This document shows positions 6,802 through 40,236 of a DNA stretch of 64,000 bases, one piece after another. The stretch is from NCBI GenBank assembly GCA_963741955.1, contig CAVUKB010000007.1, positions 288,001-352,000 of the forward strand, read 5' to 3'. The notes beneath the pieces are model-generated. The model had not been told where the DNA came from, did not search any database, and worked only from the letters and a program-made list of their open reading frames with translations. Position 1 is the first letter of the stretch. Each line of letters begins with the position of its first letter. Source of the stretch: an uncultured Acidobacteriota bacterium. GTDB taxonomy: Bacteria; Acidobacteriota; Thermoanaerobaculia; Gp7-AA8. The translations under genes were made by a program, and so were the position numbers.

Positions 6802-6963
6802 CGTCAGAGGAAAACGCCGGGGAGGCGAAAATAATCCGCCGATACGCGCAGGAGTCTGCGCGGACTTCTGGGCGGGCGCGGTAGTGTACGGGATGGAGGA
6901 ACGCGCGGTCAACGAGACGGCGGATACGATGCACGACCCCGCTGTCTCATCCCGTTCGCAGCC

Positions 6964-7548: not shown

Positions 7549-7853
7549 TGCACTTCCCTCAACACTCGACAGTGGCGACTCTGTTCCGAATGCCACCTGC
7601 TGCTGTTCTCAGCATGTCCAATGATAGCATCCCCCGGACGGGCCCGTCATGGGCCAATTGGTGCCAAGCACTTGAAAAAGCGGACGTTTTGGGCGATATT
7701 CTCAGTCTGGCTAATCAGGGATGAGTCGACGTGAGTCTCTGAACCCGGAGCGAGGACTCACTTTTCATGTTGTGTGAGCCGACTCGGGAATCATCAGCGA
7801 GTGCTGGTGATATTCACGAGCGGCGCTGTTCGGGGTGGTTTTGGGAGGAAAAC

Positions 7854-9347: not shown

Positions 9348-9367
9348 TCCATCTTCATCGAAACGAG

Positions 9368-9393
9368 AAAGCCCCGCTTCGGCGGGGCTTTTC
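9368..9393. terminator. Bidirectional intrinsic terminator
   Basis: AAAGCCCCGC-TTCG-GCGGGGCTTT perfect stem between convergent genes. Confidence 0.9.
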
Positions 9394-9460
9394 TGTTTCC
9401 GGAGCTCGCAGCGACGCAGCTCGCGCGTCCCGCTCGAGTCCCCGATGTGTCACGCGCGAA

Positions 9461-10156: not shown

Positions 10157-10278
10157 GCGCCGAGCATGATAGCGCCGTCGCGACGGAATGCGCTGGTGTG
10201 GAGATGGGGCGTCTGGATCGGCCGATCTCCGTCGTGACAGAATGCCAGCAGAGAATTTGCACCCCAACGCAACCGGCG

Positions 10279-11994
10279 ATGACCGAAAAACGCGACGTTA
10301 CGCGCACCCTCGACGAGATTGCGAGCTATCTCGAGATCGACGAACCGAATCCGTTCAAGTCGATGGCCTTCCGGAAGGCGGCCCGAGCGATCGAGGATCT
10401 CGATACCGGGATCGATGAGCTGGTCCGCAGCGGCGAGATCCGGCGGACGGCGGGTGTCGGCAAAGTAATCGCTCCGATCGTGGTCGAGCTCGTGGAGAGC
10501 GGCCGCGCCTCATACCTCGAAGAGCTCCGTGCGAAGTACCCACCGGGTATTCTGGAGTTGATGCGCGTTCCGGGGCTCGGCGCGAAGAAGATCACTCTTC
10601 TCTACGCCGAGCTCGGCATCGCTTCGATCGACGATCTCGAAACCGCGGCGCGGGAAGGAAGGCTCCGCTCGATCCGTGGCTTCGGAGAGAAGACGGCGCA
10701 GAAGGTTCTCGACTCGATCGCGTCGATGCGCGAGCACGCCGGTCAGTTTCTCCTCGTCGCAGCGCTCGACTCGGCGGAGCTCCTCCTGCGGGCGCTCCGG
10801 CGGAATCTCGACGTCGCCGCCGCGGTGACCGGATCAGCCCGGCGGCGCCTCGAGGTCGTCGATCGGGTCGAGCTCGTCGTCGCGACCGAGACCCCCGAAG
10901 AGACGGCCGAGGCGATTCGAGGAATCGCGCTCCTCGAAGGTGTGGCGAGAGACGATCGGGCGGTACACGGAACCGTCCGCAGCATTCCGCTGACCGTCCA
11001 TCTCACCACTCCCGACCTCCTTCCATTGACACTCCTCTTCTCCACTGGAACCGGAGAGTTCGTCGACGCGCTGAGACGGCATGCGACGTCGGTGGGATTC
11101 GAGCTGACTCCTTCCGCTCTCCTTCGAGGAGCGGCGCGCGTCGAAGTCGACGACGAGGACGCCATCTTCCGGCGGCTCGAGCTCGAGCCGATTCCTCCCG
11201 AGCTTCGCGAGAGCGGTGCAGTGCTCGAGCGAGCGGAGATCGTCACGGATCTGGTCGACTACGACTCGATACGTGGCACGTTTCACGTTCACTCCACCTG
11301 GTCCGACGGCCGCAACACGCTTCGCGAAATGATCGGTGCAGCACGGGAGCTCGGCTTCTCCTACGTCGGTATCTCCGACCACTCGAAAGCCGCGGCATAC
11401 GCGGGAGGATTGACGGAAGACGATCTCGAGGCGCGCGACGCCGAGCTCGACGAGATCACGGCGGAGATGCCCGACATCCGTATCTTCCGCGGCACCGAAG
11501 CGGACATCCTGCAGGACGGGACGATCGACTACGATCCGGAGACTCTCGACCGGTTCGACTTCGTCGTCGCCTCGATTCATTCGCGATTCAGGATGAATCG
11601 CGAGGAGATGACGCAAAGAATCGTGCGTGCGCTGCACGACCCGCACGTGACGTTTCTCGGACATCTCACCGGCCGCCTCCTCCTCTCTCGCGCTCCGTAC
11701 GAGCTCGACTTCGACGCGGTCTTCCGCGCGGCTGCGGAAAACGGGGTGATGATCGAGATCAACGGGTCGCCGAAACGACTCGACGTCGACTGGCGCCATC
11801 TCGAGCGCGCGATGGAGCTCGGGGTGAGCTTCAGTATCCATCCCGATGCTCACTCGACGGCGGAGATGGCGAACGTGATCGCCGGGACGTGGGTGGCGCG
11901 GAAGGGAGGCGTGCCGCGTGAGCGGGTCTTCAATGCCCGCCCTCTCGCAGACGTCGAATCCCATCTCGCGTCGCGTCGCGCGCGAGCGCGCTGA
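10279..11994 (+). CDS. polX: DNA polymerase X family / PHP-domain protein
   Basis: NPFKSMAFRKAA, HhH VPGLGAKK and GFGEKTA, GSARR; PHP motifs HVHSTWSDG, SDHS, SIH, DAH. Confidence 0.92.
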   Translation: MTEKRDVTRTLDEIASYLEIDEPNPFKSMAFRKAARAIEDLDTGIDELVRSGEIRRTAGVGKVIAPIVVELVESGRASYLEELRAKYPPGILELMRVPGLGAKKITLLYAELGIASIDDLETAAREGRLRSIRGFGEKTAQKVLDSIASMREHAGQFLLVAALDSAELLLRALRRNLDVAAAVTGSARRRLEVVDRVELVVATETPEETAEAIRGIALLEGVARDDRAVHGTVRSIPLTVHLTTPDLLPLTLLFSTGTGEFVDALRRHATSVGFELTPSALLRGAARVEVDDEDAIFRRLELEPIPPELRESGAVLERAEIVTDLVDYDSIRGTFHVHSTWSDGRNTLREMIGAARELGFSYVGISDHSKAAAYAGGLTEDDLEARDAELDEITAEMPDIRIFRGTEADILQDGTIDYDPETLDRFDFVVASIHSRFRMNREEMTQRIVRALHDPHVTFLGHLTGRLLLSRAPYELDFDAVFRAAAENGVMIEINGSPKRLDVDWRHLERAMELGVSFSIHPDAHSTAEMANVIAGTWVARKGGVPRERVFNARPLADVESHLASRRARAR

Positions 11995-22370: not shown

Positions 22371-22564
22371 TCCAACCCGATATACGGGTGGACCCGAAAA
22401 AACGTCTATTCCGCCGGGGCCGGTCTTCCCGGGGTGCAGGAGACCGCCACCGAGATGCCGGACGGAAGCAGAACCGGATATTGGACGTGTTCCATCTTCC
22501 CACGGTTCTTGCGCCCGCACTCCGTCTGCGCCTAGAATCGCGTAAATCTCGGTTCGAGGGCAAG

Positions 22565-23851
22565 ATGCGCGTATTGGTGGTCGGTCAGGGAGGTCGGGAG
22601 CATGCCATCTGCTGGAAGCTCCGGCAGTCTCCCACGGTGAAGGAGCTCTATGCTGCTCCGGGCAATGCAGGAATCGCTTCGGTGGCGGACTGCGTCCCGA
22701 TCGGGGTGGCGGACATCATCGAGCTCGCCGACTTCGCCGAGAAACTGAAGATGGATCTGACGGTGGTCGGGCCGGAGCTTCCGCTCACGCTCGGGATCGT
22801 GGACGAATTCCGGAAACGCGGGCTCTGCATCATGGGGCCGACCCAGCGCGCGGCAGAGCTCGAAGGCTCGAAGGTCTTCTCCAAGGAGTTCATGAAGAAA
22901 TACGACATCCCGACCGCGGATGCCGTGATCTGCAACTCGGCGGACGAGGCGTCGCAGCACCTGAAAAAACGGAAATTTCCGTGCGTGCTCAAAGTCGACG
23001 GGCTCGCGGCCGGGAAGGGCGTGCTGGTGGCGTCGAACCGTGCCGAAGCAGACGAGTTCCTCAATCTCGTCTTCGCCGAGAGGAAATTCGGGAATGCCGC
23101 AGACCGAGTCCTGATCGAGGACTGCCTCACCGGTGAGGAAGTCTCGTTCATGGTGCTGACCGACGGGAAGAAGATCGTCCCGCTCGCTCCCGCGAAGGAC
23201 TACAAGAAAGCATTCGACGGCGACGAGGGACCGAACACGGGCGGGATGGGCTCTCACTCTCCGGCGGTGGTACTCCCCGCGGAAGCGGCTGCCGAGATCA
23301 TGCGGAAAATCGTGATCCCGACCATCCAGGGGATGGAAGCGGAAGGCCGGACCTACTCCGGATGTCTCTACGTCGGTCTGATGCTCACGCCCGACGGGCC
23401 GAAGGCGCTCGAGTACAACTGCCGGTTCGGCGATCCCGAAACGCAGTCGCAGATGTTGCGGTTGGAGGACGACCTGGCGGATGTGTTTCTCCGGGTCGCG
23501 AGAGGATCGCTCGGCGACACGAAGCTGACGTGGCGGAAAGAGGCGGCCGCGTGCGTGGTGCTGGCCGCCGAAGGCTATCCCGGCGACTACCGGAAAGGAG
23601 CGGAAGTGACGATCGATCCGATCGAAGACGACTCGGTCGTGATCTTCCATTCCGGGATCGTGAACGAGGACGGGAGGATGGTCACGGTAGGTGGTCGCGT
23701 GGCGAGCGTCTGCGCCCGCGCGGCGACGCTCACGGAAGCGCTCGGCAAGGCGTACGGAGCAATCTCCAGGATCCATTTTGAAGGGATGCGCTACCGCACC
23801 GACATCGGATATCGTGCACTCGAGCAGCGGAAAGCGGCTGCCTCGGAGTAA
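22565..23851 (+). CDS. purD: Phosphoribosylamine-glycine ligase
   Basis: MRVLVVGQGGREHA, APGNAG, VVGPE, DGLAAGKGV, GPNTGGMG, EYNCRFGDPETQ, YRTDIG. Confidence 0.98.
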   Translation: MRVLVVGQGGREHAICWKLRQSPTVKELYAAPGNAGIASVADCVPIGVADIIELADFAEKLKMDLTVVGPELPLTLGIVDEFRKRGLCIMGPTQRAAELEGSKVFSKEFMKKYDIPTADAVICNSADEASQHLKKRKFPCVLKVDGLAAGKGVLVASNRAEADEFLNLVFAERKFGNAADRVLIEDCLTGEEVSFMVLTDGKKIVPLAPAKDYKKAFDGDEGPNTGGMGSHSPAVVLPAEAAAEIMRKIVIPTIQGMEAEGRTYSGCLYVGLMLTPDGPKALEYNCRFGDPETQSQMLRLEDDLADVFLRVARGSLGDTKLTWRKEAAACVVLAAEGYPGDYRKGAEVTIDPIEDDSVVIFHSGIVNEDGRMVTVGGRVASVCARAATLTEALGKAYGAISRIHFEGMRYRTDIGYRALEQRKAAASE

Positions 23852-24038
23852 GACGTGGGTCGCGGCTTTCTGCCGTGACGGAACTTCTACGGACATCCCG
23901 GAGAGAACGGCAGGGGCGATCTGTCGTGAAGAATCGTTGCGACGGCGGCATCCGTTGCGCACGTAGCCCGGAGTTCTCACACCTCTTCGCAAACGAGACG
24001 GCGTGAGCAATCCAGACGAGATCAGCAGGAGGTCGAGA

Positions 24039-24548
24039 GTGGCAAAGCCTTGGGTTTGCATCGTGATGGGAAGTGATTCGGACGCGCCGGTGATGTCGAG
24101 GACCGCCGACGTGCTGGAAGAGCTCGGAGTTCCATTCGAGATGACGGTGACCTCGGCGCACCGGACGCCGGCGCGCACCGAGGAGATCATCCGCGGTGCA
24201 GAAGCGAATGGAGCCGCGGTTTTCGTGGCTGGCGCGGGAGGGGCAGCGCATCTGCCCGGAGTCGTCGCCGCGTTCACCACCAGGCCGGTGATCGGTGTGC
24301 CGCTGGTCTCGGGATCGCTGCAGGGACTCGATTCGCTGCTGGCGATCGTGCAGATGCCGGGAGGGATTCCGGTGGCGACGGTGGCGATCGGTCCGGCCGG
24401 GGCGAAGAACGCCGGGATTCTCGCGGCGGAGATGCTCGCGATCTCGGACGACACGCTGGCGAAAAGGCTGACCGACTGGCGGAGCGAGATGCGCGAGCAG
24501 GTGGAACAGAAGGCTGCGAAGGTGGAGCGGAAGACGACCGGGCGCTGA
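24039..24548 (+). CDS. purE: N5-CAIR mutase
   Basis: IVMGSDSD, SAHRTP, AGAGGAAHLPGV, VQMPGGIPVATV; AGGAGG SD before GTG. Confidence 0.97.
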   Translation: MAKPWVCIVMGSDSDAPVMSRTADVLEELGVPFEMTVTSAHRTPARTEEIIRGAEANGAAVFVAGAGGAAHLPGVVAAFTTRPVIGVPLVSGSLQGLDSLLAIVQMPGGIPVATVAIGPAGAKNAGILAAEMLAISDDTLAKRLTDWRSEMREQVEQKAAKVERKTTGR

Positions 24549-24736
24549 CGGTTGCCGCCCGGGAGACTGCGCGTCTGACCGCAGGCGTTCTCTCGATGCG
24601 CGTCGAACACGCTCCGCGTGGGGGATCGCAGATCCGCACTTCCGGTACGGTTCGAACACCGTCCAGGCCGCGGACTGCGGGCCAGAGCGGGCGACACTTC
24701 GGGAAGATTCTTCCCGTCCCCGCGTTTGCTGAAACG

Positions 24737-25699
24737 ATGGCGCACACACATTCGCACGCACTTCCGGACGGCGCAGACGTGAGCCGGAAGCTCGTGGTGT
24801 CGACCGTCGCGACGACGCTGTTCGTCGGTGCGGAGCTCGGGATCGGGATCTTCGCCAATTCGCTCGCGCTGATCGGCGATGCGTTTCACAACTTCACCGA
24901 CGCGCTCGCGCTTCTTCTCGCGCTCCTCGCCATCATTCTGCAGAAGCGGGCCCCGACGCGGTCGAAGTCGTTCGGGTATCAGCGAGCCGGGTTTCTCGCC
25001 GCATTCGTGAATGCGGGAACGCTCGTCGCGTTCACGGTTTTCATCCTGATCGAGGCGTGGCGGCGATTCCGCCAACCCGAGCCGGTGGACAGCTTCTGGA
25101 TGCTGGTCACCGCGGGAGTTGCAATCGTCCTGAACAGCGGCATCACTCTGTGGCTTCGCAGTGAGGGGAAGAAGGACATCAACATCCGCGGTGCGGCGAT
25201 CCACATGATGGGCGATGCCCTCTCGGCGGTGGGCATCGTGATCGCCGCGATCCTGATGCGGAGCACCGGCTCGACGATCTACGACCCGATCGTCTCGGTG
25301 ATCATCGGCGTGCTGATCCTCTGGAGCTCGTGGGGCGTGCTTCGTGAGACGGTCAATCTTCTGCTGGAGGGAGTGCCGAACGGAATCGATCCGGACGCGG
25401 TCGCCCAGGACATCGCCTCGATGGAGGGAATCCAGGGAGTGCACCACGTGCACATCTGGGCGATCGGTCCGTCCCGGCCGGCGCTCTCGTGTCACCTCCT
25501 TCTCGGAGACATCTCACTTCGCACCGCTGCGGTGATCCGGGAGAGACTGAACGAGATGCTCGCTGCGCGTTACGAGATCGAGCACACCACGTTTCAGTTC
25601 GAGCACGCCGGCTGCCCGGAAGACAACCCGTATTGTCTGATCTACGAGGACGAAGATCCGCAGCCGCCCGCGGAGACCCGCGGGATCAGCGGAACGTGA
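24737..25699 (+). CDS. Cation diffusion facilitator (CzcD/ZitB-like Zn/Co/Cd exporter)
   Basis: HTHSH, SLALIGDAFHNFTD, SFGYQR, IHMMGD, VHHVHIW, HTTFQFE. Confidence 0.95.
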   Translation: MAHTHSHALPDGADVSRKLVVSTVATTLFVGAELGIGIFANSLALIGDAFHNFTDALALLLALLAIILQKRAPTRSKSFGYQRAGFLAAFVNAGTLVAFTVFILIEAWRRFRQPEPVDSFWMLVTAGVAIVLNSGITLWLRSEGKKDINIRGAAIHMMGDALSAVGIVIAAILMRSTGSTIYDPIVSVIIGVLILWSSWGVLRETVNLLLEGVPNGIDPDAVAQDIASMEGIQGVHHVHIWAIGPSRPALSCHLLLGDISLRTAAVIRERLNEMLAARYEIEHTTFQFEHAGCPEDNPYCLIYEDEDPQPPAETRGISGT

Positions 25700-27487: not shown

Positions 27488-28705
27488 TCACTTCTGGAGG
27501 CTCTCGTCGATCAGATTCGCGAGCCACGACTGCTGGCTCGCAGTGAGTGAAGGATTTCTCGCGAGCACCAGGTACATCGCGGCCTTGCGTTGCTCCGCGG
27601 TATATCGTCCGGTCGAATCGCGGAGTACGGCGATCGGATCGTCGGCGACGTTCGAGGGCCACTCGATCACGATGTCGTTCGCGTCCCCGACCGCCCAGTG
27701 GCTGGCGACGTCGGCGCCGAAGAGCGCTGACACCAGTTGGAGCCGCGACGTCTCGTCGCGTGCGGCACCCGACATCCGGGCGAGACGGCTTCGCGCTCCG
27801 GCGACGTCGGTGAGCGTTCGCAGATTGGAAAGAAGCTGGAGGCGTTGCATCGCTGCTTCGAGGATTTTTGCCTTCGACGTTGCCTCGGTCATCGCATTCG
27901 CCGCCTGGAGAATCCGTTGAACCCGCGAGGTCTCGAATTCGACGAACGGATCCGCATCCTCGTCCGGCGCACTCGAGGCTGCAACGCTTTCCTCAGGAGC
28001 CGCGGCAGCAGTGGCACGCGCAGTGAGGATCGCCTGAACTTCCTCTTCCGTCGGAATGGGGATCTCGAGAAGCGTGAGATCGGATCCTCCGGGAATGGTG
28101 CTCGTGGTCTCACTGCCGATCGCGGTCTCCTTGAGAGCCGATTCGCTCAGCGGCTGTGCGCCGGCCGGGGGGAGCGTATCCGGAAGCGGCGCGGTCATGG
28201 GCCAGATCTCCGTGCCGATGGTCGAGGCTTCACCGGCGAGCGCGCGGACCACGCTCGAATCGGAAGCGAGTCCCGCGTCGAGGAGATCCTCGCGAAGATC
28301 CGCCAGGAACTGCTGCCGCAATCGCACCTGAGCCATCCGATGTGCATCGTCGAGAAAGTACGGGTTCGCCTGCACCACGGTCATGTCGCAATGACACGGA
28401 CCGAAACGGTCGGGCTGAATGCGCGACTTCGGCTGCGTTTGTCTGATCGCGGCGATCGCGGCCTGGTTTTCCGCCATCTCCGCGGCTCTCGATTTCTCGC
28501 ACGCTGCCTGCGACGCGAATGCGTTCACCCCGAAGAGCTCGACCGGGCGGTTGCTCTCGGAGCTCCAGGCGAGGATGTGGTAGTGGGAGACAGGGCACCC
28601 TTCGGGAGGTGTGCCCCCCGCCGGACAGACCAGGGTCTGGGCAGCGGCCGCGGTGGCGAAGAGCAGAAGAGGGATGACCCCCGCAGCGCTTTTTCTGAAA
28701 GGCAT
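27488..28705 (-). CDS. Secreted hypothetical protein with Cys-rich N-terminal domain
   Basis: Signal peptide ending ATAAAAQ; CPAGGTPPEGC...GPCHCD; helical C-terminus; TATAAT upstream. Confidence 0.7.
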   Translation of the reverse strand: MPFRKSAAGVIPLLLFATAAAAQTLVCPAGGTPPEGCPVSHYHILAWSSESNRPVELFGVNAFASQAACEKSRAAEMAENQAAIAAIRQTQPKSRIQPDRFGPCHCDMTVVQANPYFLDDAHRMAQVRLRQQFLADLREDLLDAGLASDSSVVRALAGEASTIGTEIWPMTAPLPDTLPPAGAQPLSESALKETAIGSETTSTIPGGSDLTLLEIPIPTEEEVQAILTARATAAAAPEESVAASSAPDEDADPFVEFETSRVQRILQAANAMTEATSKAKILEAAMQRLQLLSNLRTLTDVAGARSRLARMSGAARDETSRLQLVSALFGADVASHWAVGDANDIVIEWPSNVADDPIAVLRDSTGRYTAEQRKAAMYLVLARNPSLTASQQSWLANLIDESLQK

Positions 28706-29007
28706 TCGAAGACCTCGGAGAGCGAGATGCATCGATTATAGCGCCGCGGCTTCGAGCGAGGCGGAGGAGAGCGATGTTCAGGGTCGGAGGTGGCGGAACG
28801 CCGCATCGCGGAGATGAGCGAGCAGGGAGCGTGGGGCGCCGCGGCTTCTGCCGCGACGGCAGGGCGGAAGCCGTGCCGGCTCCTCCTTGAACTCACGAAC
28901 GGATGCCGAGACTTCATCACGGCGGAAGCGGTGCCGTCCCGTTGCGGCACCGCTGAACGAACTCGCTCTCACTGCTCCAATTTCTGCCGACCGACGTTTC
29001 TACCGCG

Positions 29008-30270
29008 CTACACCTTCACGCCGCCCGCAGCGGGTACGACCGCGCGATTCCTTCCTTTCGCCTTCGCTTCGTAGAGCCGTTCGTCGGCAGCGGCGAAGAG
29101 GCGCTCCGGAGTGATGCCGTCGTCGGGAAAGATCGCGCCCCCGATGCTCACGGTGATCGGCGGCCGCTCGCCGATCGGAGGGATCGTTTCGATCGCGGTG
29201 CGCACGCGTTCGGCGAGCTGGGAAAGAGAGGAGCCGGTCGTCTCGGGAGTAATGATCGAGAACTCCTCGCCGCCGAACCGGGCCGGGTAGTCGCTGGTGC
29301 GCACGCATTCGCGGAGAGTCCGTCCGACCGCCTGCAGCGCTTCGTTCCCTGCGAGATGGCCGAAGCTGTCGTTGTAATTCTTGAAGTGATCGAGATCGAG
29401 GATGAGGATGCCGAATCCGTGCGGGTAGCGGTCTTCACGCTCGATCTCCCGCTCCATGGTGTGGAGAAACGCGCGGAAGTTCGGAAGAGCGGTCAGCTCG
29501 TCGGTGAGCGAGCGCTTCTCGAGCTCCGCGTTCGAGGCGACGAGCGAATCGGCCATCCGGTTGAACGCTGTGCCGAGCTGCGCGACTTCCGCATCGCCTC
29601 CGATCGGAGCCCGCACTTTCAACTCGCCAGCCGCCAGTCGCTCTGCCGCCTGGGAGAGACGCTCGATCGGGGTGACGACGTTGGTGAGGGTCCGCTTCGC
29701 GACGAGGAGGCTGACGATGGCGATGATCCAGGCGACGCCGAGTCCGGTCCACATCGCGTTCGTTCCTCCGCGCGAGAGGCGTGGCTTCTCCGTACGGATG
29801 TCCGATTCGTATCGATCGATCATTGCTCGCGCCGTGTCCACGACCTGCTCGGAGCGCGAGAGAACTTCGGCGCGAACCGTCGTGCGGTCCGCCTCCGACA
29901 TCTTGTTCCAATCCAGTCCTGCGCTCGAGACGAGCGCCTGGAGCGTGGCCATCTCGTCGTGAAGCTCCCGGCTTCCCTCGCCTCGAAGGGATTCGCGCTC
30001 GATGAGCTGCGCGACGCTGTTGTAGCGGATGGCGAGCTTCGAAGGGTCGAGCTCCGCGGCCTCGTTCCATTGATTGCGCCATGCGTTCTGAAAGCGGATC
30101 AACTCTTCGAGCGGCGCGACGGCTCCGGTCTGAATCTCCAGGATCCGGTCGAACTCGTGCTCGGCCGAACGTGCACGCCAGGTGAGGATGAAGACGGTGC
30201 CGATCAACAGCATCGCGTTGAGAAGCGTCAGCGCGTAAACCCGGTTGCGGAGTCGTGTTCTCGAGGCCAT
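29008..30270 (-). CDS. Membrane diguanylate cyclase (periplasmic helical bundle, HAMP, GGDEF)
   Basis: Two TMs, HAMP (PIERLSQAAERLAAG...AFNRMA), DLDHFKNYNDSFGH, RTSD I-site, RFGGEEF. Confidence 0.95.
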   Translation of the reverse strand: MASRTRLRNRVYALTLLNAMLLIGTVFILTWRARSAEHEFDRILEIQTGAVAPLEELIRFQNAWRNQWNEAAELDPSKLAIRYNSVAQLIERESLRGEGSRELHDEMATLQALVSSAGLDWNKMSEADRTTVRAEVLSRSEQVVDTARAMIDRYESDIRTEKPRLSRGGTNAMWTGLGVAWIIAIVSLLVAKRTLTNVVTPIERLSQAAERLAAGELKVRAPIGGDAEVAQLGTAFNRMADSLVASNAELEKRSLTDELTALPNFRAFLHTMEREIEREDRYPHGFGILILDLDHFKNYNDSFGHLAGNEALQAVGRTLRECVRTSDYPARFGGEEFSIITPETTGSSLSQLAERVRTAIETIPPIGERPPITVSIGGAIFPDDGITPERLFAAADERLYEAKAKGRNRAVVPAAGGVKV

Positions 30271-30289
30271 GTCGGTCCGTTCCGCCCTC

Positions 30290-32299
30290 TCACTCCCCAC
30301 CGGCAGCGGCGACGCCGTTCAGGGCGTGCATGCCGAGGTGACGCATCCGCTCGATCACGCGATGGACGGTGAGGATCACCTCCGCGTGACTCCAGGTGAG
30401 CGGCGAGACCGAAAGCGGCGAACCGGCGAACGGGTCGACCTGCTCGGGAAGCGTGCCGCTGGGCATGGCCCGATCGGTCGCCCAGTCGAGAAGATCGACC
30501 GCCTGCTGCAGCTCCTCGACGGTCCGGGCGATCTCCGCCTTCCAACGTGCAATCCAGAGTGTGCAGATGATCCATGGATTCCCGGGAGCGACCGCCGTGT
30601 CCCGAGTGACCTGATAGTAGTAGTCGTTCTCGTAGCGAGCGTAGCCTCCGATCGGCGTGTGCACGGCGAGACGGTCCATGACCCGATGCATCGTCGACAC
30701 GATACGCGGATCGTCGGGAGCGAACATGCCGAACATCCAGAGTCCGCAGACCGAGGAGTCGACCACCGGGTCGATGGAAATCGCTCCCTCCGGCGAGACG
30801 TTGACCATCCGGACGAACGAATCCGACGCCGGGTCGAAGAGAAATTTTCCCGCCGCTTCACGGATCTCGCTGGCTGCGGTCCGGTAGCGTTTCGTCAGCG
30901 TCGTTTCTCCGAACGCTTCCGTGAAATTCGCAGCGGCTTCGAGTCCCGCCCAGACCGCAGCGGTGGTGAAGGACATGATCCCGCGCCGCTCCTCCCACAG
31001 GTCGTACGACGGCGCCGGCAACCGGGTGTGCGATTCACGGAACCGAACCAGGAAGTCCGCGGAACGGGTGACCATCGCCCGGTAGAGTGGACGGATGAAT
31101 TCCACGTCGTGAAACTTCGCGAAGTGCCGCCACAGTGCCCAGAGGACCAGCGCCGTTTCGTCCTCCTGAATCGGCAGCGCACGCGATCCGTCGGAGCTCA
31201 TCCAGGGATGCCACGATGATCCGACCGATCCGTCCGGGTTGTACTTGTGGAGGAGATAACCGTCGTGGGTGTACAGGGGAAAGCAGAACTCGAAGAACTT
31301 CCTCGAGACGTCACTGTAGCCGGAGCCGTTCATCGCATCGGCGGCGATCGAGCCATCGCGTGGCCAGACGTAGCTGTACGTATCGCGGCTGAAGAGGATC
31401 GCATCCGAGTCGGTCGCCGCGATCACGGCCCCGTTGCCGTTGACCTGCGAGCGGAGGATCAGGAGCGAGCGCCGGTACAGATCCCGGACCGGATCGGAGA
31501 GAAGTTTCAGTCCGTGCGAGTCATCCTTGCGCGACCAGAGCCGCCAGTAATGCTCCGTCCTCTCCATGAAGCTGGCCGGTCCTCGCTCCCGCACCAGCGA
31601 CGCGAGCGAGGTCACCTCGGGGAACGATCGTCCGAACGCCCACCAGAACCAGACCGTCGCTTCGCCACCGGCGGTGAGTGTGGCCTCGATCATTCCGGTC
31701 GAATCGACGGAGCCCTGGGCGATCGGATTGCGGCTCAGCTCACCGTCCTCCGCATCGCGCCAGGTTCCCTGAAAGCCGCGCTGTTCCTTGACCCCCGTGG
31801 CGAAGGACGCCAGTCCGAAGCGGTCACCGGAGGCTCCGCTCATGAGAATGTAGCGCTGACCCTTGTACGCGATGAGAGAGCTCTGATCCGGATCGTAGAA
31901 GACGGTGTCGCCGATGGCGTTCTCGCCGAGGTGTCCATCGAGGTGGAGGAAGAGCCGGACCCGCCGGGGTTGATTGCGGAGGTCGCGCAGATCGACGCGG
32001 CGGATGAAGAGGTCGCGGTCGAAGTCGACCGTATCCCGGATCAGCGCGGCGATGCCGAGGGATGAGGAGGTCGCGGTGACACGGGTGACCAGCGTTTCCG
32101 GCTCGTATTCGCAGTGTTTGTTCCAGAGCGGCGATTCGATCCAGGCGAAGCGTCCGTCCGACCAGATGCCGAACCGGGAGGGATCGCCGGCGGTCTGGTT
32201 TTCCTCCCCGACGAACGGGTAGTAAACGTCCCGGATGTTGTAGTCGTGATCGAAATTGATCATCAGCGAGCCGTTGCTGATGGGCAGATCCCGAGCCAT
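30290..32299 (-). CDS. Glycoside hydrolase family 15 (glucoamylase/trehalase-like)
   Basis: GAVIAA, YSYVWPRDG, IQEDETA, YDLWEER, LPEQ, PLTWSHA. Confidence 0.93.
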   Translation of the reverse strand: MARDLPISNGSLMINFDHDYNIRDVYYPFVGEENQTAGDPSRFGIWSDGRFAWIESPLWNKHCEYEPETLVTRVTATSSSLGIAALIRDTVDFDRDLFIRRVDLRDLRNQPRRVRLFLHLDGHLGENAIGDTVFYDPDQSSLIAYKGQRYILMSGASGDRFGLASFATGVKEQRGFQGTWRDAEDGELSRNPIAQGSVDSTGMIEATLTAGGEATVWFWWAFGRSFPEVTSLASLVRERGPASFMERTEHYWRLWSRKDDSHGLKLLSDPVRDLYRRSLLILRSQVNGNGAVIAATDSDAILFSRDTYSYVWPRDGSIAADAMNGSGYSDVSRKFFEFCFPLYTHDGYLLHKYNPDGSVGSSWHPWMSSDGSRALPIQEDETALVLWALWRHFAKFHDVEFIRPLYRAMVTRSADFLVRFRESHTRLPAPSYDLWEERRGIMSFTTAAVWAGLEAAANFTEAFGETTLTKRYRTAASEIREAAGKFLFDPASDSFVRMVNVSPEGAISIDPVVDSSVCGLWMFGMFAPDDPRIVSTMHRVMDRLAVHTPIGGYARYENDYYYQVTRDTAVAPGNPWIICTLWIARWKAEIARTVEELQQAVDLLDWATDRAMPSGTLPEQVDPFAGSPLSVSPLTWSHAEVILTVHRVIERMRHLGMHALNGVAAAGGE

Positions 32300-32512
32300 C
32301 GATCCGGTCTCCCTCCTTTCGCTTCCGAAGCAGTTTCAAGGATACGCCGTTCGGGAATCCGCCGGGAACCTGATCGCAAAAGTGCGGGGAGCCGTTATGA
32401 TTCGATGCACGGGCGATAACTCCCGCCCCCTCTTTCTTTTGGCGCGGGGTTAGCAGGACCGGTCAGAACGGTTCCGGAACCGGCAAAGGCACGTGATTCG
32501 AGAATATTGGCG

Positions 32513-35500
32513 ATGATTTTCAACCGGAGCGGCGAGTCCGAGGTCCCGCGAGAGAACGAGCCGGGACGCTCTGCGTCCGACGGGCCTCTCCCCGGCCGTC
32601 GTCGGGGATGCCGGCGCGTTCTCCGAATCGTCGTCGGGGTGGCGCTCGTGGTCCTTCTTTTCCTGATCGGATTCTCGATCACCTTCGTCGGAACCGGGAA
32701 GTTCGGCCAGTACGTGGCGACCAAGATCGCGGCGAACCTCGAAGCGCATCTCGGGCGGAAGGTCCACATCGGGAGAGTGATCATCCTCCGGACCTATCCG
32801 ATCACGGTCATCCTCGAAGACATCACGCTCGCGAACGTTCCGGAAGGGGAAGCGAAGTACTTCGCGAAGATCGACCGGGCGGTGGTGAAAGCGGGGGTCA
32901 CGTCTTTCTACAAGCGGGTCTTCTCCCTCAACTCGATCGAAGTCGACCATCCGCAGATCAACCTGGAGATCTTCGGTCCGGAGAGTCCGATCCCGCACAA
33001 CTTCCCTCACTGGAAGGCGAACAAGCCGACCGGTAACCTGCAGATCGTCCGGGTCGAGGTGGACCGGATCACGGTGAAAGATGCGGAGTTCGCGTTCCTC
33101 GATCACCGTCATCAGATCACGGCTCACATGACGCGTCTCGCGTCCGTGATCACTCCCTCCGTCAACGAGCAGATCTACCAGGGGACGGCGGTCAGTCCGG
33201 CCGTGACGGTTCAGATCCAGGACTACGAGCCTTTGCATCTCGATTTCCGCGGCGGGTTCCGCTACGACCCCGGGACTCTGAAGCTGACCGGCCTGCGGCT
33301 CGACGGTGAAGACATTCACGTCGAAGCGGACGGGAAGGTCGAGCCGATCACCGAAGGGATCTACGACTTCGCAATCCGGGCGAATTTCGATCTGAAGAAG
33401 GTGAAGAAGACGTTCCTGGTCGACACCACACTCGACGGTCCGATGGCCATGACCGGACAGCTTCACGGCGACACGGGCACCTTCGTCTTCAAAGGAGGAT
33501 TCCGCTCTCCGAAGATCATCGCCGATCAGTACACCATGTCCGACCTTGCGGCGAAGTTCCAGGTGGACAACACCCACGCCGTCGTCGACGTCACGAAGGC
33601 GAGCTTCGAGGGGGGAGCGGTCACCGCTCACTACGTCCTGAACGATTTCAGCGAGCCGTATCCGATGGTGGTGGACCTGGGCTTCCGCGGCGTGTCGCTC
33701 GAACAGATGATCGGGACGTGGGGAGTGAGTCACATCGGCCTGGCCGGCGCGGCCACCGGAACCCTCCACTACACCTGGAACAAGAACGACCTTCTTGGCG
33801 GGCACGGAACCGGAATCGCACGGCTGAGCCCCAGCGCGCTCGCATCGAGCAGGGCGAAGTACCCGATACCCGTCTCCGGCACGACGAAGTTCGGCATCGA
33901 CAATGGGGTGATCCGATTCGCATCGGCGGACCTCGACCTGCCGAAGTCGAAGATTCACTTTGCCGGAACGCTCGCCATCAGCGATCTGAGGACGAACTTC
34001 ACATACTCGGTCCGGACCGGTGACTTCTCGGAGATCGACCGGATCGCATACAACCTCGCGCACGCAACCGGCAATCCGGATTTCACTCTGCTCGGGCTGG
34101 GAGGATCAGGGACGGCATCGGGAACGCTGAAAGGGAAGATCGACGAGCCGGTGGTCGCAGCGCACATCGAGGGGGCAGGTCTACAGTACAACCACGTCCT
34201 GATCGGCGAGACCGCGACCATCGATCTGACCTACGACGGACCGAAGGAGACGCTCGGCTTCCGCCCGGCGGTGTTCCGCCTTCCGAGCGCGTCGATGACC
34301 CTTCGCGGAACCCTCCATTTCCTGAAGGGGAAGGCCGGACCCGTCTTCGACCTCCAGGTCACTGCCGACAACTGGCCGGTAGAACGTGCTCTCGACGCGG
34401 TGGATATGCAGCAGTTCGCGATCAGTGGACGGGCGACTGGCGAGCTGACGGTGAAAGGGACGCCGGAGGACGGGACGGTGACGTTCTCGCCGGTGGCCAT
34501 CGCGCAGGAAACGGGACAGATCAACGTCACCGGAACCATCCACTGGCTGCCGGGAGAGAAGAACGTCGTGTTCAATCTCGACGTCGCAGCGGAGTCGTTC
34601 CCAGTGCAGGACCTCCTCACGTTCCTCGACATGTCCACAACGCAGATGAGTGGGCTGGTGACCGGCACGATGCATCTCGAAGGACCGCTCACCACGATCG
34701 AAGGAGCGGGCTCGCTCACGTTGCGTAACGGGAGCGTGTACGGACAGCCGATCGAAACGGCGACCGCCGACATCCTCTTCCGCAAAGGAGAGGTCCACGT
34801 CACGCATCTCGAGGTGACGTCGCCTGCAGGGCATGTTCTCGGTGAGGCCACCTACAACTTCGAGACCGGCAAGTTCGGCTACGTGATCAAGGAAGGGACG
34901 CTGCAGCTCGGGAATATCGCTCTTCCCGAGGCGCTGCAGGATCTCTTCGGCGGGACGCTCCACATCGTCTCCAGTGGTGCGGGAACGATGCAGAATCCGG
35001 AACTGGTGCTCGAGGCGACACTCGAGAGCGGTCAGATCAAGGGGGTCGAGTTTCCGCCCGGTGCACCGGCTCCGACGCTCTACCTCACCATCCGCAACGG
35101 TGAGATGAGCATCCGCGGGTCGGCGTTCGACGTTCTCTCCATCGAGGGGAGCGGCTCGGTCGCGCAGTCGGGGGCGCTCGACGGATCGGTCACCGTCAGG
35201 CTGACCGACATCGGGAAGTTTCTCTCCATCGTTTCGCCGTCGAGCGATATCGGGACGACCGGAAGCATGGTGGTGCAGCTCGATCTGGGAGGGAAGCTCG
35301 GAGCGCTCGAGACGATCAGGATCGAAGGGACCGTGCCGGAGCTCGATCTGCAGATCTCCGGACACCCGGTGACACCGGCGAGCCCGATCCGTTTCGCCTT
35401 GAACAACGGAGCGCTGCAGTTCGAGTCATTCCAGTTGAGAACGGACGGATCGACGTTCGACATCGCCGGAAGCGTAGGGCTGACCGGCGAGCAGAAGATC

Positions 35501-38500
35501 GATCTGAACATCGACGGCGCGGTGGAAGCCGCGCTGCTCCAGCTGTTCCTTCACGATCTCAAATCGGAGGGGCAGATCGGAATTCGGGCCCGGGTGGGGG
35601 GCACCGTGAGCACTCCGCGCCTGGAGGGAACCGCCGAGGTGAAGAACGGGCAGTTCCGTTTCGCCGGCTTCCCGCAGCTGATCGACAACGTCAACGCGGC
35701 CCTGGTGTTCCAGGGAGATCGTCTTCGGATCGATTCGTTCCAGGCCGTGGTCGGAGGCGGAACGGTGAACGCGGGCGGCTTCATCACTCTGAATGGCCTC
35801 ACCCCGAGTCGGGTACGGATCAATGCGACGGGAAAGAACGTCTCCATCCGCTACTTCGAAGGGCTCACCATCGACGGCGATTTCACCGGAAAGCTCGAGG
35901 GGGGTGTGGACCGGATGATCCTCGACGGCAACGTCACCGTCAACCGCGCCGTCTACTCGAAGGATTTCGATTTCGCGACCTCGATTCTCAACCTGATCCT
36001 GGAGCGGCGGGAGCTGATTCCGGCGCTGGCCGCGAGCTGGCAGGATCGGATCTCTCTCGACGTCAAGGTGAGCGCGGACGATACGCTCGCGGTCAAGAAC
36101 AACATCGCCGACATCACGGCGAGTGCGGAGTTCGACGTGATCGGGACTCTCGCCAATCCGGTGCTGATGGGACAGCTCACGATCGACGAGGGAGGGAAGG
36201 TCGACTTCCAGGACGTCCAGTATCGCGTGGTGCGCGGCACCATCAACTTTCAGAATCCTTTCCGGAACGACCCCTACTTCGACCTCACCGCGGAGGGGCG
36301 ACTCCAGGATTACCAGCTGACCATCAACGTCACCGGGACGCTCGATCACATCACCCCGACCATCACCAGCGATCCTCCGATTTCAGACCTGACCCTCCTT
36401 TCCCTTCTCGGACCCGGTCCGCTGACGACGGGCGCTGCGGGTGGGCCGCGGATCGGCACCTCCACTCTCGAGACGACCGGTTCCTCGCTGGTTGCGGAGA
36501 GTCTCGGTTCTCTGATCGGCCAGCGCATCCTCCCCTTCGCCGATGCATTCCGCTTCGAGCCCGGGCTGGTCGGCGATTCCGAGCAGAGGGTGACGTTCGA
36601 AAAGCAGATCTCGGACAACCTTCGGGTCATTCTGGTGTACTACCCCAAGGACCCCAACCGGCGGAACGCGGAGATCGTGGAGTGGCAGGTCAATCCCGAA
36701 TGGGTGATTCAGGCCACCGGAGTCGGAGGCGAGGCGAAGCAGAGTTACCTCCTGGAGGCGATCGACGCACGTTTCCGACGGCGGTACGAGGGGCACTTCG
36801 GCGTGAGCGGTGGGAAACCGGAACGGCCGCCGGCGGGGACGGCGACGATTGCGACTCCGGCCGGACCGGCAGCGGTACCGCACGAGCCGTTGCCGACGAA
36901 TCAGCCTCTCGCACCGGAGATCGCGTTCACCACTCCGACCGTCGAATCGATCAGTTTCCGGACCGACAGTCCGTTCGACGTCACGCCGCTCGCCGACGTG
37001 ATCTCCCTCTCGACCGGCAAGCCCCTCGACGTCCGCGACCTTCAGAGCTCGATCCAGGCTCTCTACGCGACGGGCAACTTCCGCGACATTCAGGTGGCGG
37101 CCGAGCAGCACGACGGAGCGATCGACGTCACGATCCTTCTCTCGCTCCACTACCTGATCTCGGACGTCGGCTTCGAAGGGTTGACCGAGTTCGAAGATCG
37201 GGCGAAGAAAGAGATGGTGACACGCGCCGGGTCGGTGCTCAGCCTCAATGCGGTCGACCGCAGCGCGGTCGCGATCCAGACCATGCTCGCCCGGCGCGGC
37301 TGGCTCGAGTCGACGGTCGACCCGGAGGTGCAGTATCAGCGCGAACAGAACCTGGCGAAGGTGATCTATCACGTCGCCATGGGACCTCGGGCAAAGGTCA
37401 CCGGGGTCGAGTTCACCGGCTCGCTCGCTCCCTTCGGCCGCGATCAGCTGATCGACCGGATGAAGGAACGTCCCGGATCGTGGTACTCGGCGTCAGCCGC
37501 GCGCAACGATGCCGACCGGATCCGGAACTTCCTGGTGCGGAAGGATTACCGGCGGGCGGACGTCCGTTACGTCGACGAGACCTACGACAGCAGCTCCGGC
37601 AGCGTGACGCTCCACTATCGGGTCGACGTCGGCCTGAAGGTCCGCGTGGCGGTCACCGGCGTCCCGCGCTCGGCCGTGCACCGGATGATCCCGTTCGGCC
37701 GGAACGAAGCGTATTCGCAGGACGCCATCGCCACCGCCACCGATGCGATCATCCGGCGCTATCAGCAGAAGGGATACTTCTTCGCCGCAGTCGACGTGAC
37801 GGAGAAGGAGAGCGGCGGCGAATGGGTGATCACATTCGATGTCGTTCCCGGCGAGACGTACCGCGTCGGGAGCGTCCGCTTCGAAGGGAACGAGACCGTT
37901 TCCGACAAGCAGCTCCGGAAGCTCGTCGCGACGAAGGCCGGCGGAGGGTTCCGTAGTTTCTTCGGTTCTCTTTTCGGCCGCGGCGGCCTCACTCAGGCAC
38001 AGCTCAACGAGGACCGCGATGCGATCGCCGCCTGGTACCGGCTCCACGGCTTCACCGAAGTGAGCGTCGGCCAGCCGGTGGCGAATCGCAAACCGGGGAA
38101 CCTGCTGGAGATCGTTTTCCCGATCACCGAAGGGCCGCAGACCATCGTCCGGAAGATCGAGATCGTCGGCAACGAGGGGATTCCCACCAGGCAGCTGCCC
38201 GCCCTGAGAATGAAGGAAGGGGATCCGCTCAATCCGCAACTCGTCACCGCGGACCTGATCGGGCTCCGATCGTTCTACAGCGAGAGAGGATATCCGGAGG
38301 TTCAGGTCACTCCTCACGTCGAGCCGAATTCCGCGAAGACTTCCGCCACTCTGACGTACCAGATCGCCGAAGGACCGAAGGTCGAGATCGGAGACGTCGC
38401 CGTTCGCGGAAATACGTATACGAGGACGGACGTGGTGCTGAAGAAGGCCGGTCTGAAGAAAGGCGAGCCATTCAGCTACCGGACCCTTCTCGAGGCGCAG

Positions 38501-39739
38501 CGCGAGCTCTACCGGATGGCGATCTTCGAAAGGGTCGAAGTCCAGCCCGAACACGGCGGGACGACTCCCTCGGAGCGCAACGTGACCATCGACGTCACGG
38601 AAGGGAAGGATCTGACCGTCGCCGGCGCACTCGGCTACTCCTCCTCCGAGAACGCGCCCCGCGTCACGGCCACTCTCTCCGACCGGAATCTGTTCGGCAC
38701 CGGCCGGTACGCCGCAATCGAGGCGCGCGTCTCTCAGCCGGAGAAGCGATACCTCATGACCTACACCGAGCCGTTCCCGTTCAACTACAACGTGCCGGCG
38801 CAGCTCACGGTCTTCCGTACCGACGAGAACCGTACCGTCGGTGGAACCGAGAATCTCTTCCACGTGGGGCGCTGGGGAACCTTCGTGGAGCTCGCGAAAG
38901 TCTTCCGCGAACAGACGCGGTGGTCGCTCCGCTACGAGTACAAGCTGGTCGATTTCACCTGCCGGGACGAGACGAACGAGCTGTGCCAGCTGGCGAAGCT
39001 CGGCATTCCGACCGCCGGAATTCCAGCCGAGGATCAGGGAACGCGGGTGTCCAGTCTGACCCCGACGTTCTTCTTCGACCAGAGAGACGACCCGGTCAAC
39101 CCGCACCGCGGCTTCTACGCCAGTGCGTCGCTGGAGTACGCGTTCCGCTTCCTCAATGCGGACGCGAGCTTCCTCAAGAGCCTCACCCAGGGAGCGTGGT
39201 ATCTCCCTCTGACCGACCGGTCGCAATTCGTCGTGGCGGGACGGATCGGAATGATCGAGCCGCTCGGAACCGAGCGTCAGCTCGAGAACCCGAGCATCGG
39301 ACCGCGCGTTCCGATCTCCGAGAAGTTCACCGCCGGAGGCGAGTCGTCCCACCGCGCGTTCGAGAGGAACGGACTCGGAGTGCTCTACCAGCTCTGTCCG
39401 GAGCCCACGAGCTGCTCCGGTTCGATTCCCGCCGGCGCGAGCCTGATAGGCGTCGGGAAGAACGTCTATCCGATCGGTGGAAACGCGCTGGTGGTGTTCA
39501 ACACCGAGTATCAGTTCCCGATCTTCGGAAATCTGCAGGGAGCCACGTTCCTCGACATCGGGCAGGTGTGGGGAACCATCCAGTCGATGAACGCGCGGGA
39601 TCTCCGCTACGGGGCGGGAGCGGGCCTCCGGTACGTCACCCCGCTCGGGCCGCTCCGTCTCGACGTCGGCTTCAAGTTCGACCGGAAGCCGTACGAGGAT
39701 CCATACGCGGTGTTCCTGACGCTCGGGTATCCGTTCTAG
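32513..39739 (+). CDS. TamB/AsmA-like protein fused to ~7 POTRA domains and an Omp85 beta-barrel
   Basis: N-terminal basic patch plus TM anchor; long beta-taco repeats; DUF490-like GTLANPVLMG...TSDPPISDLTLLSLL; Pro-rich linker; POTRA repeats (RFEGN, IVGN, VRGN, Y..GY); barrel with DRNLFGTG, DDPVNPHRG, GAGLRYVTPLGPLRLD, terminal LGYPF. Confidence 0.92.
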   Translation: MIFNRSGESEVPRENEPGRSASDGPLPGRRRGCRRVLRIVVGVALVVLLFLIGFSITFVGTGKFGQYVATKIAANLEAHLGRKVHIGRVIILRTYPITVILEDITLANVPEGEAKYFAKIDRAVVKAGVTSFYKRVFSLNSIEVDHPQINLEIFGPESPIPHNFPHWKANKPTGNLQIVRVEVDRITVKDAEFAFLDHRHQITAHMTRLASVITPSVNEQIYQGTAVSPAVTVQIQDYEPLHLDFRGGFRYDPGTLKLTGLRLDGEDIHVEADGKVEPITEGIYDFAIRANFDLKKVKKTFLVDTTLDGPMAMTGQLHGDTGTFVFKGGFRSPKIIADQYTMSDLAAKFQVDNTHAVVDVTKASFEGGAVTAHYVLNDFSEPYPMVVDLGFRGVSLEQMIGTWGVSHIGLAGAATGTLHYTWNKNDLLGGHGTGIARLSPSALASSRAKYPIPVSGTTKFGIDNGVIRFASADLDLPKSKIHFAGTLAISDLRTNFTYSVRTGDFSEIDRIAYNLAHATGNPDFTLLGLGGSGTASGTLKGKIDEPVVAAHIEGAGLQYNHVLIGETATIDLTYDGPKETLGFRPAVFRLPSASMTLRGTLHFLKGKAGPVFDLQVTADNWPVERALDAVDMQQFAISGRATGELTVKGTPEDGTVTFSPVAIAQETGQINVTGTIHWLPGEKNVVFNLDVAAESFPVQDLLTFLDMSTTQMSGLVTGTMHLEGPLTTIEGAGSLTLRNGSVYGQPIETATADILFRKGEVHVTHLEVTSPAGHVLGEATYNFETGKFGYVIKEGTLQLGNIALPEALQDLFGGTLHIVSSGAGTMQNPELVLEATLESGQIKGVEFPPGAPAPTLYLTIRNGEMSIRGSAFDVLSIEGSGSVAQSGALDGSVTVRLTDIGKFLSIVSPSSDIGTTGSMVVQLDLGGKLGALETIRIEGTVPELDLQISGHPVTPASPIRFALNNGALQFESFQLRTDGSTFDIAGSVGLTGEQKIDLNIDGAVEAALLQLFLHDLKSEGQIGIRARVGGTVSTPRLEGTAEVKNGQFRFAGFPQLIDNVNAALVFQGDRLRIDSFQAVVGGGTVNAGGFITLNGLTPSRVRINATGKNVSIRYFEGLTIDGDFTGKLEGGVDRMILDGNVTVNRAVYSKDFDFATSILNLILERRELIPALAASWQDRISLDVKVSADDTLAVKNNIADITASAEFDVIGTLANPVLMGQLTIDEGGKVDFQDVQYRVVRGTINFQNPFRNDPYFDLTAEGRLQDYQLTINVTGTLDHITPTITSDPPISDLTLLSLLGPGPLTTGAAGGPRIGTSTLETTGSSLVAESLGSLIGQRILPFADAFRFEPGLVGDSEQRVTFEKQISDNLRVILVYYPKDPNRRNAEIVEWQVNPEWVIQATGVGGEAKQSYLLEAIDARFRRRYEGHFGVSGGKPERPPAGTATIATPAGPAAVPHEPLPTNQPLAPEIAFTTPTVESISFRTDSPFDVTPLADVISLSTGKPLDVRDLQSSIQALYATGNFRDIQVAAEQHDGAIDVTILLSLHYLISDVGFEGLTEFEDRAKKEMVTRAGSVLSLNAVDRSAVAIQTMLARRGWLESTVDPEVQYQREQNLAKVIYHVAMGPRAKVTGVEFTGSLAPFGRDQLIDRMKERPGSWYSASAARNDADRIRNFLVRKDYRRADVRYVDETYDSSSGSVTLHYRVDVGLKVRVAVTGVPRSAVHRMIPFGRNEAYSQDAIATATDAIIRRYQQKGYFFAAVDVTEKESGGEWVITFDVVPGETYRVGSVRFEGNETVSDKQLRKLVATKAGGGFRSFFGSLFGRGGLTQAQLNEDRDAIAAWYRLHGFTEVSVGQPVANRKPGNLLEIVFPITEGPQTIVRKIEIVGNEGIPTRQLPALRMKEGDPLNPQLVTADLIGLRSFYSERGYPEVQVTPHVEPNSAKTSATLTYQIAEGPKVEIGDVAVRGNTYTRTDVVLKKAGLKKGEPFSYRTLLEAQRELYRMAIFERVEVQPEHGGTTPSERNVTIDVTEGKDLTVAGALGYSSSENAPRVTATLSDRNLFGTGRYAAIEARVSQPEKRYLMTYTEPFPFNYNVPAQLTVFRTDENRTVGGTENLFHVGRWGTFVELAKVFREQTRWSLRYEYKLVDFTCRDETNELCQLAKLGIPTAGIPAEDQGTRVSSLTPTFFFDQRDDPVNPHRGFYASASLEYAFRFLNADASFLKSLTQGAWYLPLTDRSQFVVAGRIGMIEPLGTERQLENPSIGPRVPISEKFTAGGESSHRAFERNGLGVLYQLCPEPTSCSGSIPAGASLIGVGKNVYPIGGNALVVFNTEYQFPIFGNLQGATFLDIGQVWGTIQSMNARDLRYGAGAGLRYVTPLGPLRLDVGFKFDRKPYEDPYAVFLTLGYPF

Positions 39740-40038
39740 AGAAGCCGAGGCTTGCAGAAGCCGAGGCTCGAGACTCGAGGCTGGAGGCTCGAGGGGAACC
39801 GCGGGGAGAGTCAACCGCTTCCGGAATGTTCATGCAAGAGAGGATTTCGGAGAATTAAATTCTGTCAATACGGCATTTCGATGAATAAAATGCGCCGAAA
39901 TCGATAATATACCGAATATTTCGGCGATGAGTGTGGCGAATATTTTGGGCGAGGAGTGCGTCGTCTCTGCGTCGGGGTCTCTGCTTCCCGAGCCTCGAAT
40001 CTCGAACCTCTAATCCCGGCCTCTGCGAGCCCCGGCTT

Positions 40039-40236
40039 CTAATCCTCGTGCAGTGACGGCTCGAGCTGCTCGGCGCCGTGCAGTCGCCCGGTCAGCTGTG
40101 CCGGATCGTGGATCAGGATCGGAAGGTGTTGAGAGCAGATCGAGTGCGTCTCGCCGCGGAACTCGAACGTGATCAGAGGGACCGACGTGGAGTCGCGGTC
40201 GCAGGCGATACAGGTACGGCTGGTTCGAAGTGTCAT
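40039..40236 (-). CDS. Small putative metal-binding protein (CxxC...CxxH)
   Basis: CIAC...ICSQHLPILIHDP; plausible codon usage. Confidence 0.7.
   Translation of the reverse strand: MTLRTSRTCIACDRDSTSVPLITFEFRGETHSICSQHLPILIHDPAQLTGRLHGAEQLEPSLHED

Follow-up and report, generated by a model that had tools for sequence, protein, structure and literature searches.

A single reading frame joining a TamB bridge, seven POTRA domains and an Omp85 barrel in an Acidobacteriota lineage

Whether an inner-membrane TamB bridge and its outer-membrane Omp85 partner, which are two proteins in E. coli, can be built and can operate as one polypeptide is the question raised by a locus in an uncultured Acidobacteriota bacterium (hereafter the host). 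In the window analyzed here, the whole stretch of 64,000 nucleotides, the TamB-Omp85 fusion is a single open frame at 32513-39739 on the forward strand, free of stops and 2,408 codons long from the ATG; an alternative TTG start two codons 5′ of it would yield 2,410 amino acids (aa). TamB, POTRA and Omp85 families are likewise found in one chain in 119/119 other listed homologues.

Architecture of the fused chain

The chain opens with a basic patch, a single transmembrane helix (aa 32-59) and a following helix (aa 62-80), encoded at 32606-32752 on the forward strand, as are all parts described below, and assigned as a TamB-type inner-membrane signal-anchor from hydropathy and model helices. The only segment of transmembrane-grade hydrophobicity lies at aa 36-54 (KD19 2.91; next best 1.45), and one N-terminal hydrophobic segment with none later is the pattern in all 115 full-length homologues (115/115). 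A periplasm-spanning repeating β-groove with DUF490 helices follows (aa 84-1344, 32762-36544), the TamB bridge, delimited with AlphaFold, structural matches and the Pfam TamB family: Pfam places an AsmA/DUF748/YhdP-like region at aa 32-301 and TamB/DUF490 (PF04357) at aa 1076-1406 (E 1e-39). Six C-terminal TamB β-strands (aa 1345-1425, 36545-36799), defined by DSSP assignment of the model, conservation and the junctions of split relatives, end in the β-signal-like D-A-R-F-R-R-R-Y and then EGHF. Next comes a 47-aa Ala/Pro/Thr-rich linker (aa 1430-1476, 36800-36940), recognized by low pLDDT and by its length range in relatives, then seven POTRA domains (about aa 1476-2030, 36941-38602) and a 16-stranded Omp85 barrel (aa 2034-2404, 38612-39736) with the C-terminus LGYPF. 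Six stretches pass the Pfam POTRA model (PF07244), while our own POTRA profile and the AlphaFold model both give seven repeats; the barrel is identified by Pfam Omp85 (PF01103, aa 2059-2398, E 6e-51), the AlphaFold model and structure matches. The initial annotation, which had read from the sequence an uninterrupted ~2,408-aa frame with a basic patch and helix as its sole N-terminal anchor, TamB/AsmA-like repeats ending in a DUF490-like region, a Pro/Ala linker, seven POTRAs counted by eye and an Omp85 barrel ending LGYPF, is borne out part by part. The Omp85 partner is not TamA proper; it is a seven-POTRA second BamA-like copy.

Structural models were generated for two overlapping segments. 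The model of aa 30-1229 (mean pLDDT 89) contains the transmembrane helix, the second helix and a continuous β-repeat region, and that of aa 1210-2408 (mean pLDDT 82, pTM 0.70) contains the six strands at aa 1345-1425, a disordered linker (pLDDT below 50 for aa 1431-1459), seven POTRAs and 16 barrel strands; structural matches include the E. coli TAM chains 9xdd_B and 9xdc_A. The best fold match of the N-terminal model is TamB (9xdd_B, Z 10.8, rmsd 4.7, 178 aligned), with further matches to LPD-3 (9cap_A, Z 10.6) and Vps13 (6cbc_B, Z 8.8), matches that exceed those of unrelated barrels (Z 8-9) only modestly. Foldseek ranked ApoB100 first, together with many low-probability β-rich chains, which we take as shape matches; a sequence comparison of the DUF490 region with the PDB matched no TamB chain, the fold search alone finding TamB. 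The eukaryotic bridge-like lipid transfer proteins Vps13, LPD-3 and ATG2 share the N-terminal β-groove fold but have no Omp85 barrel and dock on separate membrane partners.

In the C-terminal model, strand 1 of closed, barrel-only BamA/TamA crystals (6qgy, 6qgw, 7r1v, 4n75, 6qgx, 4n74, 8us4) superposes on model residues 136-143, which are the first TamB C-terminal strand, while other barrel-only chains in the same alignment table align from the true barrel start; the top-ranked barrel matches include open or substrate-bound Omp85 states. These alignment ranges imply, indirectly, that the model places the TamB strands in the barrel wall beside strand 16, as a hybrid barrel would. A two-chain complex prediction of aa 1210-1434 with aa 1709-2408 scored 0.14 (mark 0.32) and is weighed on neither side.

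Distribution and origin of the fusion

A protein search with aa 1300-2408, under a size limit of 1,324-4,214 aa, gave 360 matches, and the 119 listed homologues (query aside) all cover at least 96% of that region. Where NCBI names exist, they give Thermoanaerobaculia or Acidobacteriota as the source and BamA or TamB-domain protein as the product, so the fusion is hidden. Across the host order, 122/127 genomes have a match. The host family (class Thermoanaerobaculia by the homologue labels) contributes 119 genomes including the host, two of which end before the junction, and among the 117 scorable genomes the gene is fused in 112: 59 were inspected and 53 inferred from frame length, the latter (including the unpublished G347, G391 and G392) being counted as fused where an open frame of at least 1,652 aa surrounds DUF490. 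Two of the inspected contigs end in or just past the linker, and the G024 and G386 copies are frameshifted elsewhere in the gene. The initial annotation had allowed that relatives might all encode two genes; most do not. The five split genomes of the family are G001 and all four of genus g7, both sister families (three genomes) are wholly split, and the class members fetched outside the host order are each split or without a barrel in the stretch. In G027, three near-identical split tamB matches lie on contigs C1, C2 and C3.

That assembly or sequencing artificially joined two genes is so improbable as to be negligible, and it was ruled out by conservation of the fused frame: 59 inspected junctions in the host family and all 119 listed database homologues speak against it, as does the lack of a signal-peptide remnant at the host junction. 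The X1 contig (depth 11.8) spans 31500-39404 with zero differing letters and zero gaps, hence neither stop nor indel across the junction, where the initial annotation had suggested looking; this run is perhaps the source of the host assembly, so that its contig is not independent. That the sole covering contig may derive from the source sample, and that some relatives' copies carry frameshifts (G024, G025, G027, G386, G315), is what favors an artefact; runs X2 and X3 gave short scattered pieces only over the locus.

The junctions of split relatives indicate how the frames were joined. In 8/8 split order members examined, the stop of tamB overlaps a GTG by four bases, TamB ends in ...R-R-R-(Y/F)-x-(G/A)-x-W-stop, and the downstream frame opens with a signal-peptide-like stretch of 22-30 aa (max KD11 2.2-3.3) followed by POTRA1; TamB ends in split relatives at the same residue where the host linker begins. 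Fused proteins retain the junction Trp in 82/83 rows (Phe in the host protein) and the internal β-signal strand (R1422 in 49/49, an aromatic residue at 1425 in 49/49, an acidic residue at 1418 in 48/49). Beyond it, 49 fused linkers measure 40-60 aa (median 44) with a median max KD11 of 1.05 and a highest value of 2.18, and across 83 seven-POTRA rows, not all independent as some are the same or close proteins, the linker is 38-75 aa long (median 44), Ala/Pro/Thr-rich and unconserved in sequence. A fused frame that keeps the junction motif and continues into a weakly hydrophobic linker shows that joining the genes removed the overlap of stop and start and put a hydrophilic tether of 40-60 aa in the place of the signal peptide. 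The split sister lineages show the state before fusion.

The seven POTRAs are inherited, not new; a seven-POTRA BamA-like copy has already been described in Acidobacteria and in Bdellovibrio. The main text of Heinz et al. (2015, PMC4494059) reports that Acidobacteria carry a duplicated seven-POTRA BamA-like protein and proposes it as the origin of TamA/TAM. The acidobacterial TamB and BamA-like pair described there has the same partners and the same POTRA count as the host fusion, but as separate proteins, that main text making no mention of a fusion, whereas the host has one chain. The host fusion fits this duplicated TamB partner in its seven POTRAs, its junction to tamB and its coexistence with a canonical BamA, and it is nested among split class members. 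The Bdellovibrio operon Bd2494 (DUF490)-Bd2495 (seven-POTRA Omp85) shares the tamB-then-omp85 order and the POTRA number, but it consists of two unfused genes with a TPR gene upstream, according to the passages of PMC3983030 that concern it.

Fusions also occur elsewhere in the phylum, where a survey found a TamB match in 262/301 genomes; 28 of the best 150 of those matches listed lie in frames of at least 2,000 aa. Sixty loci were fetched, long frames first, so that their counts are not frequencies: 26 intact fusions from 15 other families, one frameshifted fusion, and 33 split or without a barrel in the stretch. By our own POTRA profile, the host-family fusions and most split downstream partners across the phylum have seven repeats, while the 26 other fusions have five (22 proteins), four (three proteins, families f31 and f50) or four with a gap (one), and their linkers to the start of the POTRA profile measure about 1-21 aa. 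Position-specific profiles identify the second repeat as P4 in 19/22 five-repeat proteins, the first as P4 in 3/3 four-repeat proteins and the last as P7 in 26/26; by these assignments the five- and four-POTRA fusions are without distal POTRAs 1-2 or 1-3 and keep P3-P7 or P4-P7. The family f22 genomes G046, G063 and G078 carry two divergent fused paralogues each, and in locus L069 (G291, frame 2500-10839) a five-POTRA fusion fills an open frame of 2,779 aa, whose part before DUF490 exceeds that of the family relative G185 by ~700 aa.

Phylogenies were built separately for DUF490 and the barrel and for a concatenation of 79 rows, in which the host family was reduced to 10 rows, four rows were omitted as long or distant, and the unpublished G030 stands among the split and outgroup rows. 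Seven-POTRA fusions nest among split pairs in a clade at class level (SH-aLRT 99), and in the same trees four-POTRA fusions nest in another split clade and five-POTRA fusions stand apart. A single clade of all 35 fused rows was rejected (p-AU 4e-42), as was one of the seven- and five-POTRA fusions (p-AU 7e-7), both tests using LG+G4 and a quick tree and the latter grouping having been picked after the tree was seen. At least three separate origins in Acidobacteriota would be the simpler reading; one ancient fusion followed by many fissions would require signal peptides and POTRAs to be regained repeatedly. Inside the host order, fused and split rows are intermingled in the gene tree (three changes), and monophyly of the fused rows is not rejected by the gene tree (p-AU 0.167) or the canonical BamA tree (p-AU 0.318). 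A word search found no report of independent fusion origins.

As to why the genes fused, a selectively neutral accident in a translationally coupled pair, tolerated as both ends share the same side of the membrane, is a serious if doubtful candidate: with the four-base overlap present in every split order member examined, small indels can join the frames, and one family contains both split and fused genes. Against neutrality stand the recurrent origin of fusions, with distal POTRAs lost in parallel, and near-fixation in the host family (112/117); these amount to at least a ratchet, yet are no proof of benefit. A neutral origin is compatible with the covalent lipid-bridge mechanism set out below.

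The barrel and its genomic context

Loop 6 of the host barrel reads HRAF (aa 2280-2283, 39350-39361), as initially noted, instead of (V/I)RG(F/Y), with an invariant Arg. The idea that HRAF marks a loss of insertase activity tied to the fusion was ruled out: H-R-A/G-F/Y also occurs in split class members, so the motif predates the fusion and is therefore not linked to it. Against NCBIfam models, the fused barrel scores 411 bits with BamA TIGR03303 (cut-off 297) and the fused frame 114 bits with TamA NF047950 (cut-off 625), falling below both the TamA and the TamB equivalog cut-offs. The family consensus has two conserved cysteines in each of two extracellular barrel loops (aa about 2145-2160 and 2290-2305), and these pairs are probably disulfides.

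The host genome (99.1% complete) encodes a separate five-POTRA bamA with a signal peptide and VRGF (G000, C7:716866 region), the canonical gene for which the initial annotation had advised a search, and a gene labelled skp-like from its sequence lies 3′ of it. BamA was found in 19/20 host-family genomes searched and in 17/18 of the fused ones. Canonical BamA shares with the fusion the Omp85 barrel fold and a POTRA arm, and the host barrel lies above its cut-off, but the signal peptide, five POTRAs and stand-alone state of BamA belong to the separate gene and not to the fusion; the barrels are of low identity (29% between the G010 fusion and the BamA barrel of the host genome).

A tethered assembly machine, in which the barrel serves as an additional BamA/TamA-like insertase for some outer-membrane proteins (OMPs) and TamB as its lever or conduit, is unlikely in our assessment. 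The barrel passes the BamA cut-off and keeps the loop-6 Arg, and these features, which seem compatible with insertase activity, count in part against a lipid-bridge reading; the FxDxG strand motif is, like that Arg, invariant, and older work gives TAM such a role, as summarized in parts of PMC13119328 and PMC10345924. Against it stand the presence of canonical BamA, the shedding of two to three distal POTRAs by independent fusions, and an argument made for E. coli in the portions of PMC13119328 covered here, by which a covalently held TamB β-signal would occupy strand 1, the substrate site.

With Pfam models for TamB, AsmA and DUF748 and our own profiles, the fused frame is the only match in the host genome, and YhdP and YdbH profiles matched nothing there; the YhdP profile missed even the fused frame in this genome search, so divergent AsmA-like genes may be missed. 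The fused protein is probably the main bridge-type lipid transporter of the cell. Two weak Omp85-family matches lie at G000 C4:291631-292032 (a 1,210-aa frame) and C1:420613-421461 (a 1,122-aa frame).

The neighbours of the fused gene are a divergently oriented GH15 gene and a convergent gene for an aldo-keto reductase, not envelope genes, and a promoter scan of its 5′ region found nothing above shuffles. A HAMP-GGDEF diguanylate cyclase gene (29008-30300, reverse strand) lies divergently upstream, the GH15 gene between them in the host; a diguanylate cyclase homologue is near tamB in 15/100 fetched loci, all from the host order, and GH15 in four. Two reverse-strand ORFs of 987 and 414 aa (22532-25495 and 27488-28732), without Pfam or NCBIfam match, sit among genes for a TPR protein, an ECF-type sigma factor and a secretin-N-domain protein. 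Directly past the stop, at 39740-40040, an A+T-rich spacer of ~200 bp lies between two imperfect inverted arms of 52 nt, 77% complementary and composed of short GAGGCTC-like repeats, an element that may be REP-like and related to the hairpin repeats of the host genome.

A probable covalently joined lipid bridge

E. coli TamA and TamB (PDB 9xdc/9xdd, 23sp) resemble the host protein in the inner-membrane-anchored β-groove, the DUF490 region, six C-terminal strands ending in a β-signal and an Omp85 partner, but they are two proteins in tamA-tamB order with three POTRAs and a signal peptide on TamA, whereas the host has one chain, tamB-omp85 order and seven POTRAs; the β-signal, free at the C-terminus of E. 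coli TamB, is kept internally and followed by linker and POTRAs. In E. coli cryo-EM structures, the last TamB strand and TamA strand 1 pair to form a hybrid barrel (PMC13119328, PMC12800296). The portions covered of the first paper describe this barrel as stable and argue that it blocks OMP folding, those of the second describe hybrid and non-hybrid states, and both favor lipid transport for TAM; the non-hybrid state counts against a permanent hybrid barrel in the host protein. The barrel strand-2 residue corresponding to the E. coli TamA K283-TamB D1252 pair is Arg in 25/49 rows, in a region where the seven-POTRA alignment is loose.

We consider it likely that the fusion is an intact, covalently joined TAM-type phospholipid bridge, its tethered barrel being inserted by BAM and serving as outer-membrane anchor. 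One reading frame contains the complete TamB and the seven-POTRA Omp85 that sister lineages encode separately, after tamB and with a signal peptide. The N-terminal helix would act as an uncleaved signal-anchor and stay in the inner membrane while Sec passes the rest of the chain into the periplasm, and the separate canonical BamA would insert the C-terminal barrel with the chain still tethered. The last strand of a barrel protein ends on the periplasmic side, and if the TamB strands close the barrel the tether can therefore run on to the POTRA arm. The six C-terminal TamB strands would fill the lateral gate of the barrel in cis, forming a hybrid barrel as in E. coli TamAB, and the β-groove would carry phospholipids between the membranes, the barrel acting mainly as outer-membrane anchor of the bridge and not as a general OMP insertase. 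From the modelled groove we infer that the fused protein binds and moves phospholipids, and the mature protein would be anchored in both membranes.

The linker, predicted to be unstructured and exposed, counts against an intact chain. Were the chain a polyprotein whose linker is cut by a periplasmic protease, releasing an ordinary TamB and Omp85, the fusion would couple only expression and export; cleavage would remove the problem of tethered insertion, and a disordered linker of unconserved sequence suits it. We regard this as quite improbable, given that the linker has no conserved cleavage motif or hydrophobic region, that it is never below 38 aa in the 83 seven-POTRA rows (not all independent), as if a spacer were required, and that other fusions combine ~3-20 aa linkers with loss of distal POTRAs, leaving a protease little room. 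For the covalent bridge in its fullest form, namely an uncleaved chain in both membranes with a permanent hybrid barrel in cis, built at least three times (with seven, five or four POTRAs) and turning a BamA paralogue into a lipid-bridge anchor, we judge the chances to be even.

All parts of the protein are known, which caps the surprise, and the single-chain TamB-Omp85 arrangement appears to be undescribed: no paper reporting it was found in the portions covered of the literature searched, including PMC4494059, PMC4104836, PMC10345924, PMC12800296 and PMC13119328, with subscription papers and supplements outside that scope. The role of TAM is debated between folding outer-membrane proteins and moving lipids, and over the permanence of the TamA-TamB hybrid barrel two cryo-EM studies from 2026 reach opposing conclusions, stable in one and transient in the other. 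Both debates are directly touched by a natural covalent version, in which the TamB β-signal sits beside its own barrel in what is apparently the only bridge-type protein of the cell; it also lends itself to determining a full-length trans-envelope structure from a single chain. The series from split seven-POTRA pairs through seven-POTRA fusions with long tethers to five- and four-POTRA fusions with short ones tells which POTRAs can be spared under covalent docking, and it constrains the geometry of the bridge. If uncleaved, the protein is also an example from nature of a barrel that is inserted with its chain still held in the inner membrane, and the proposed mechanism, if true, would mean that BAM can insert a barrel so tethered.
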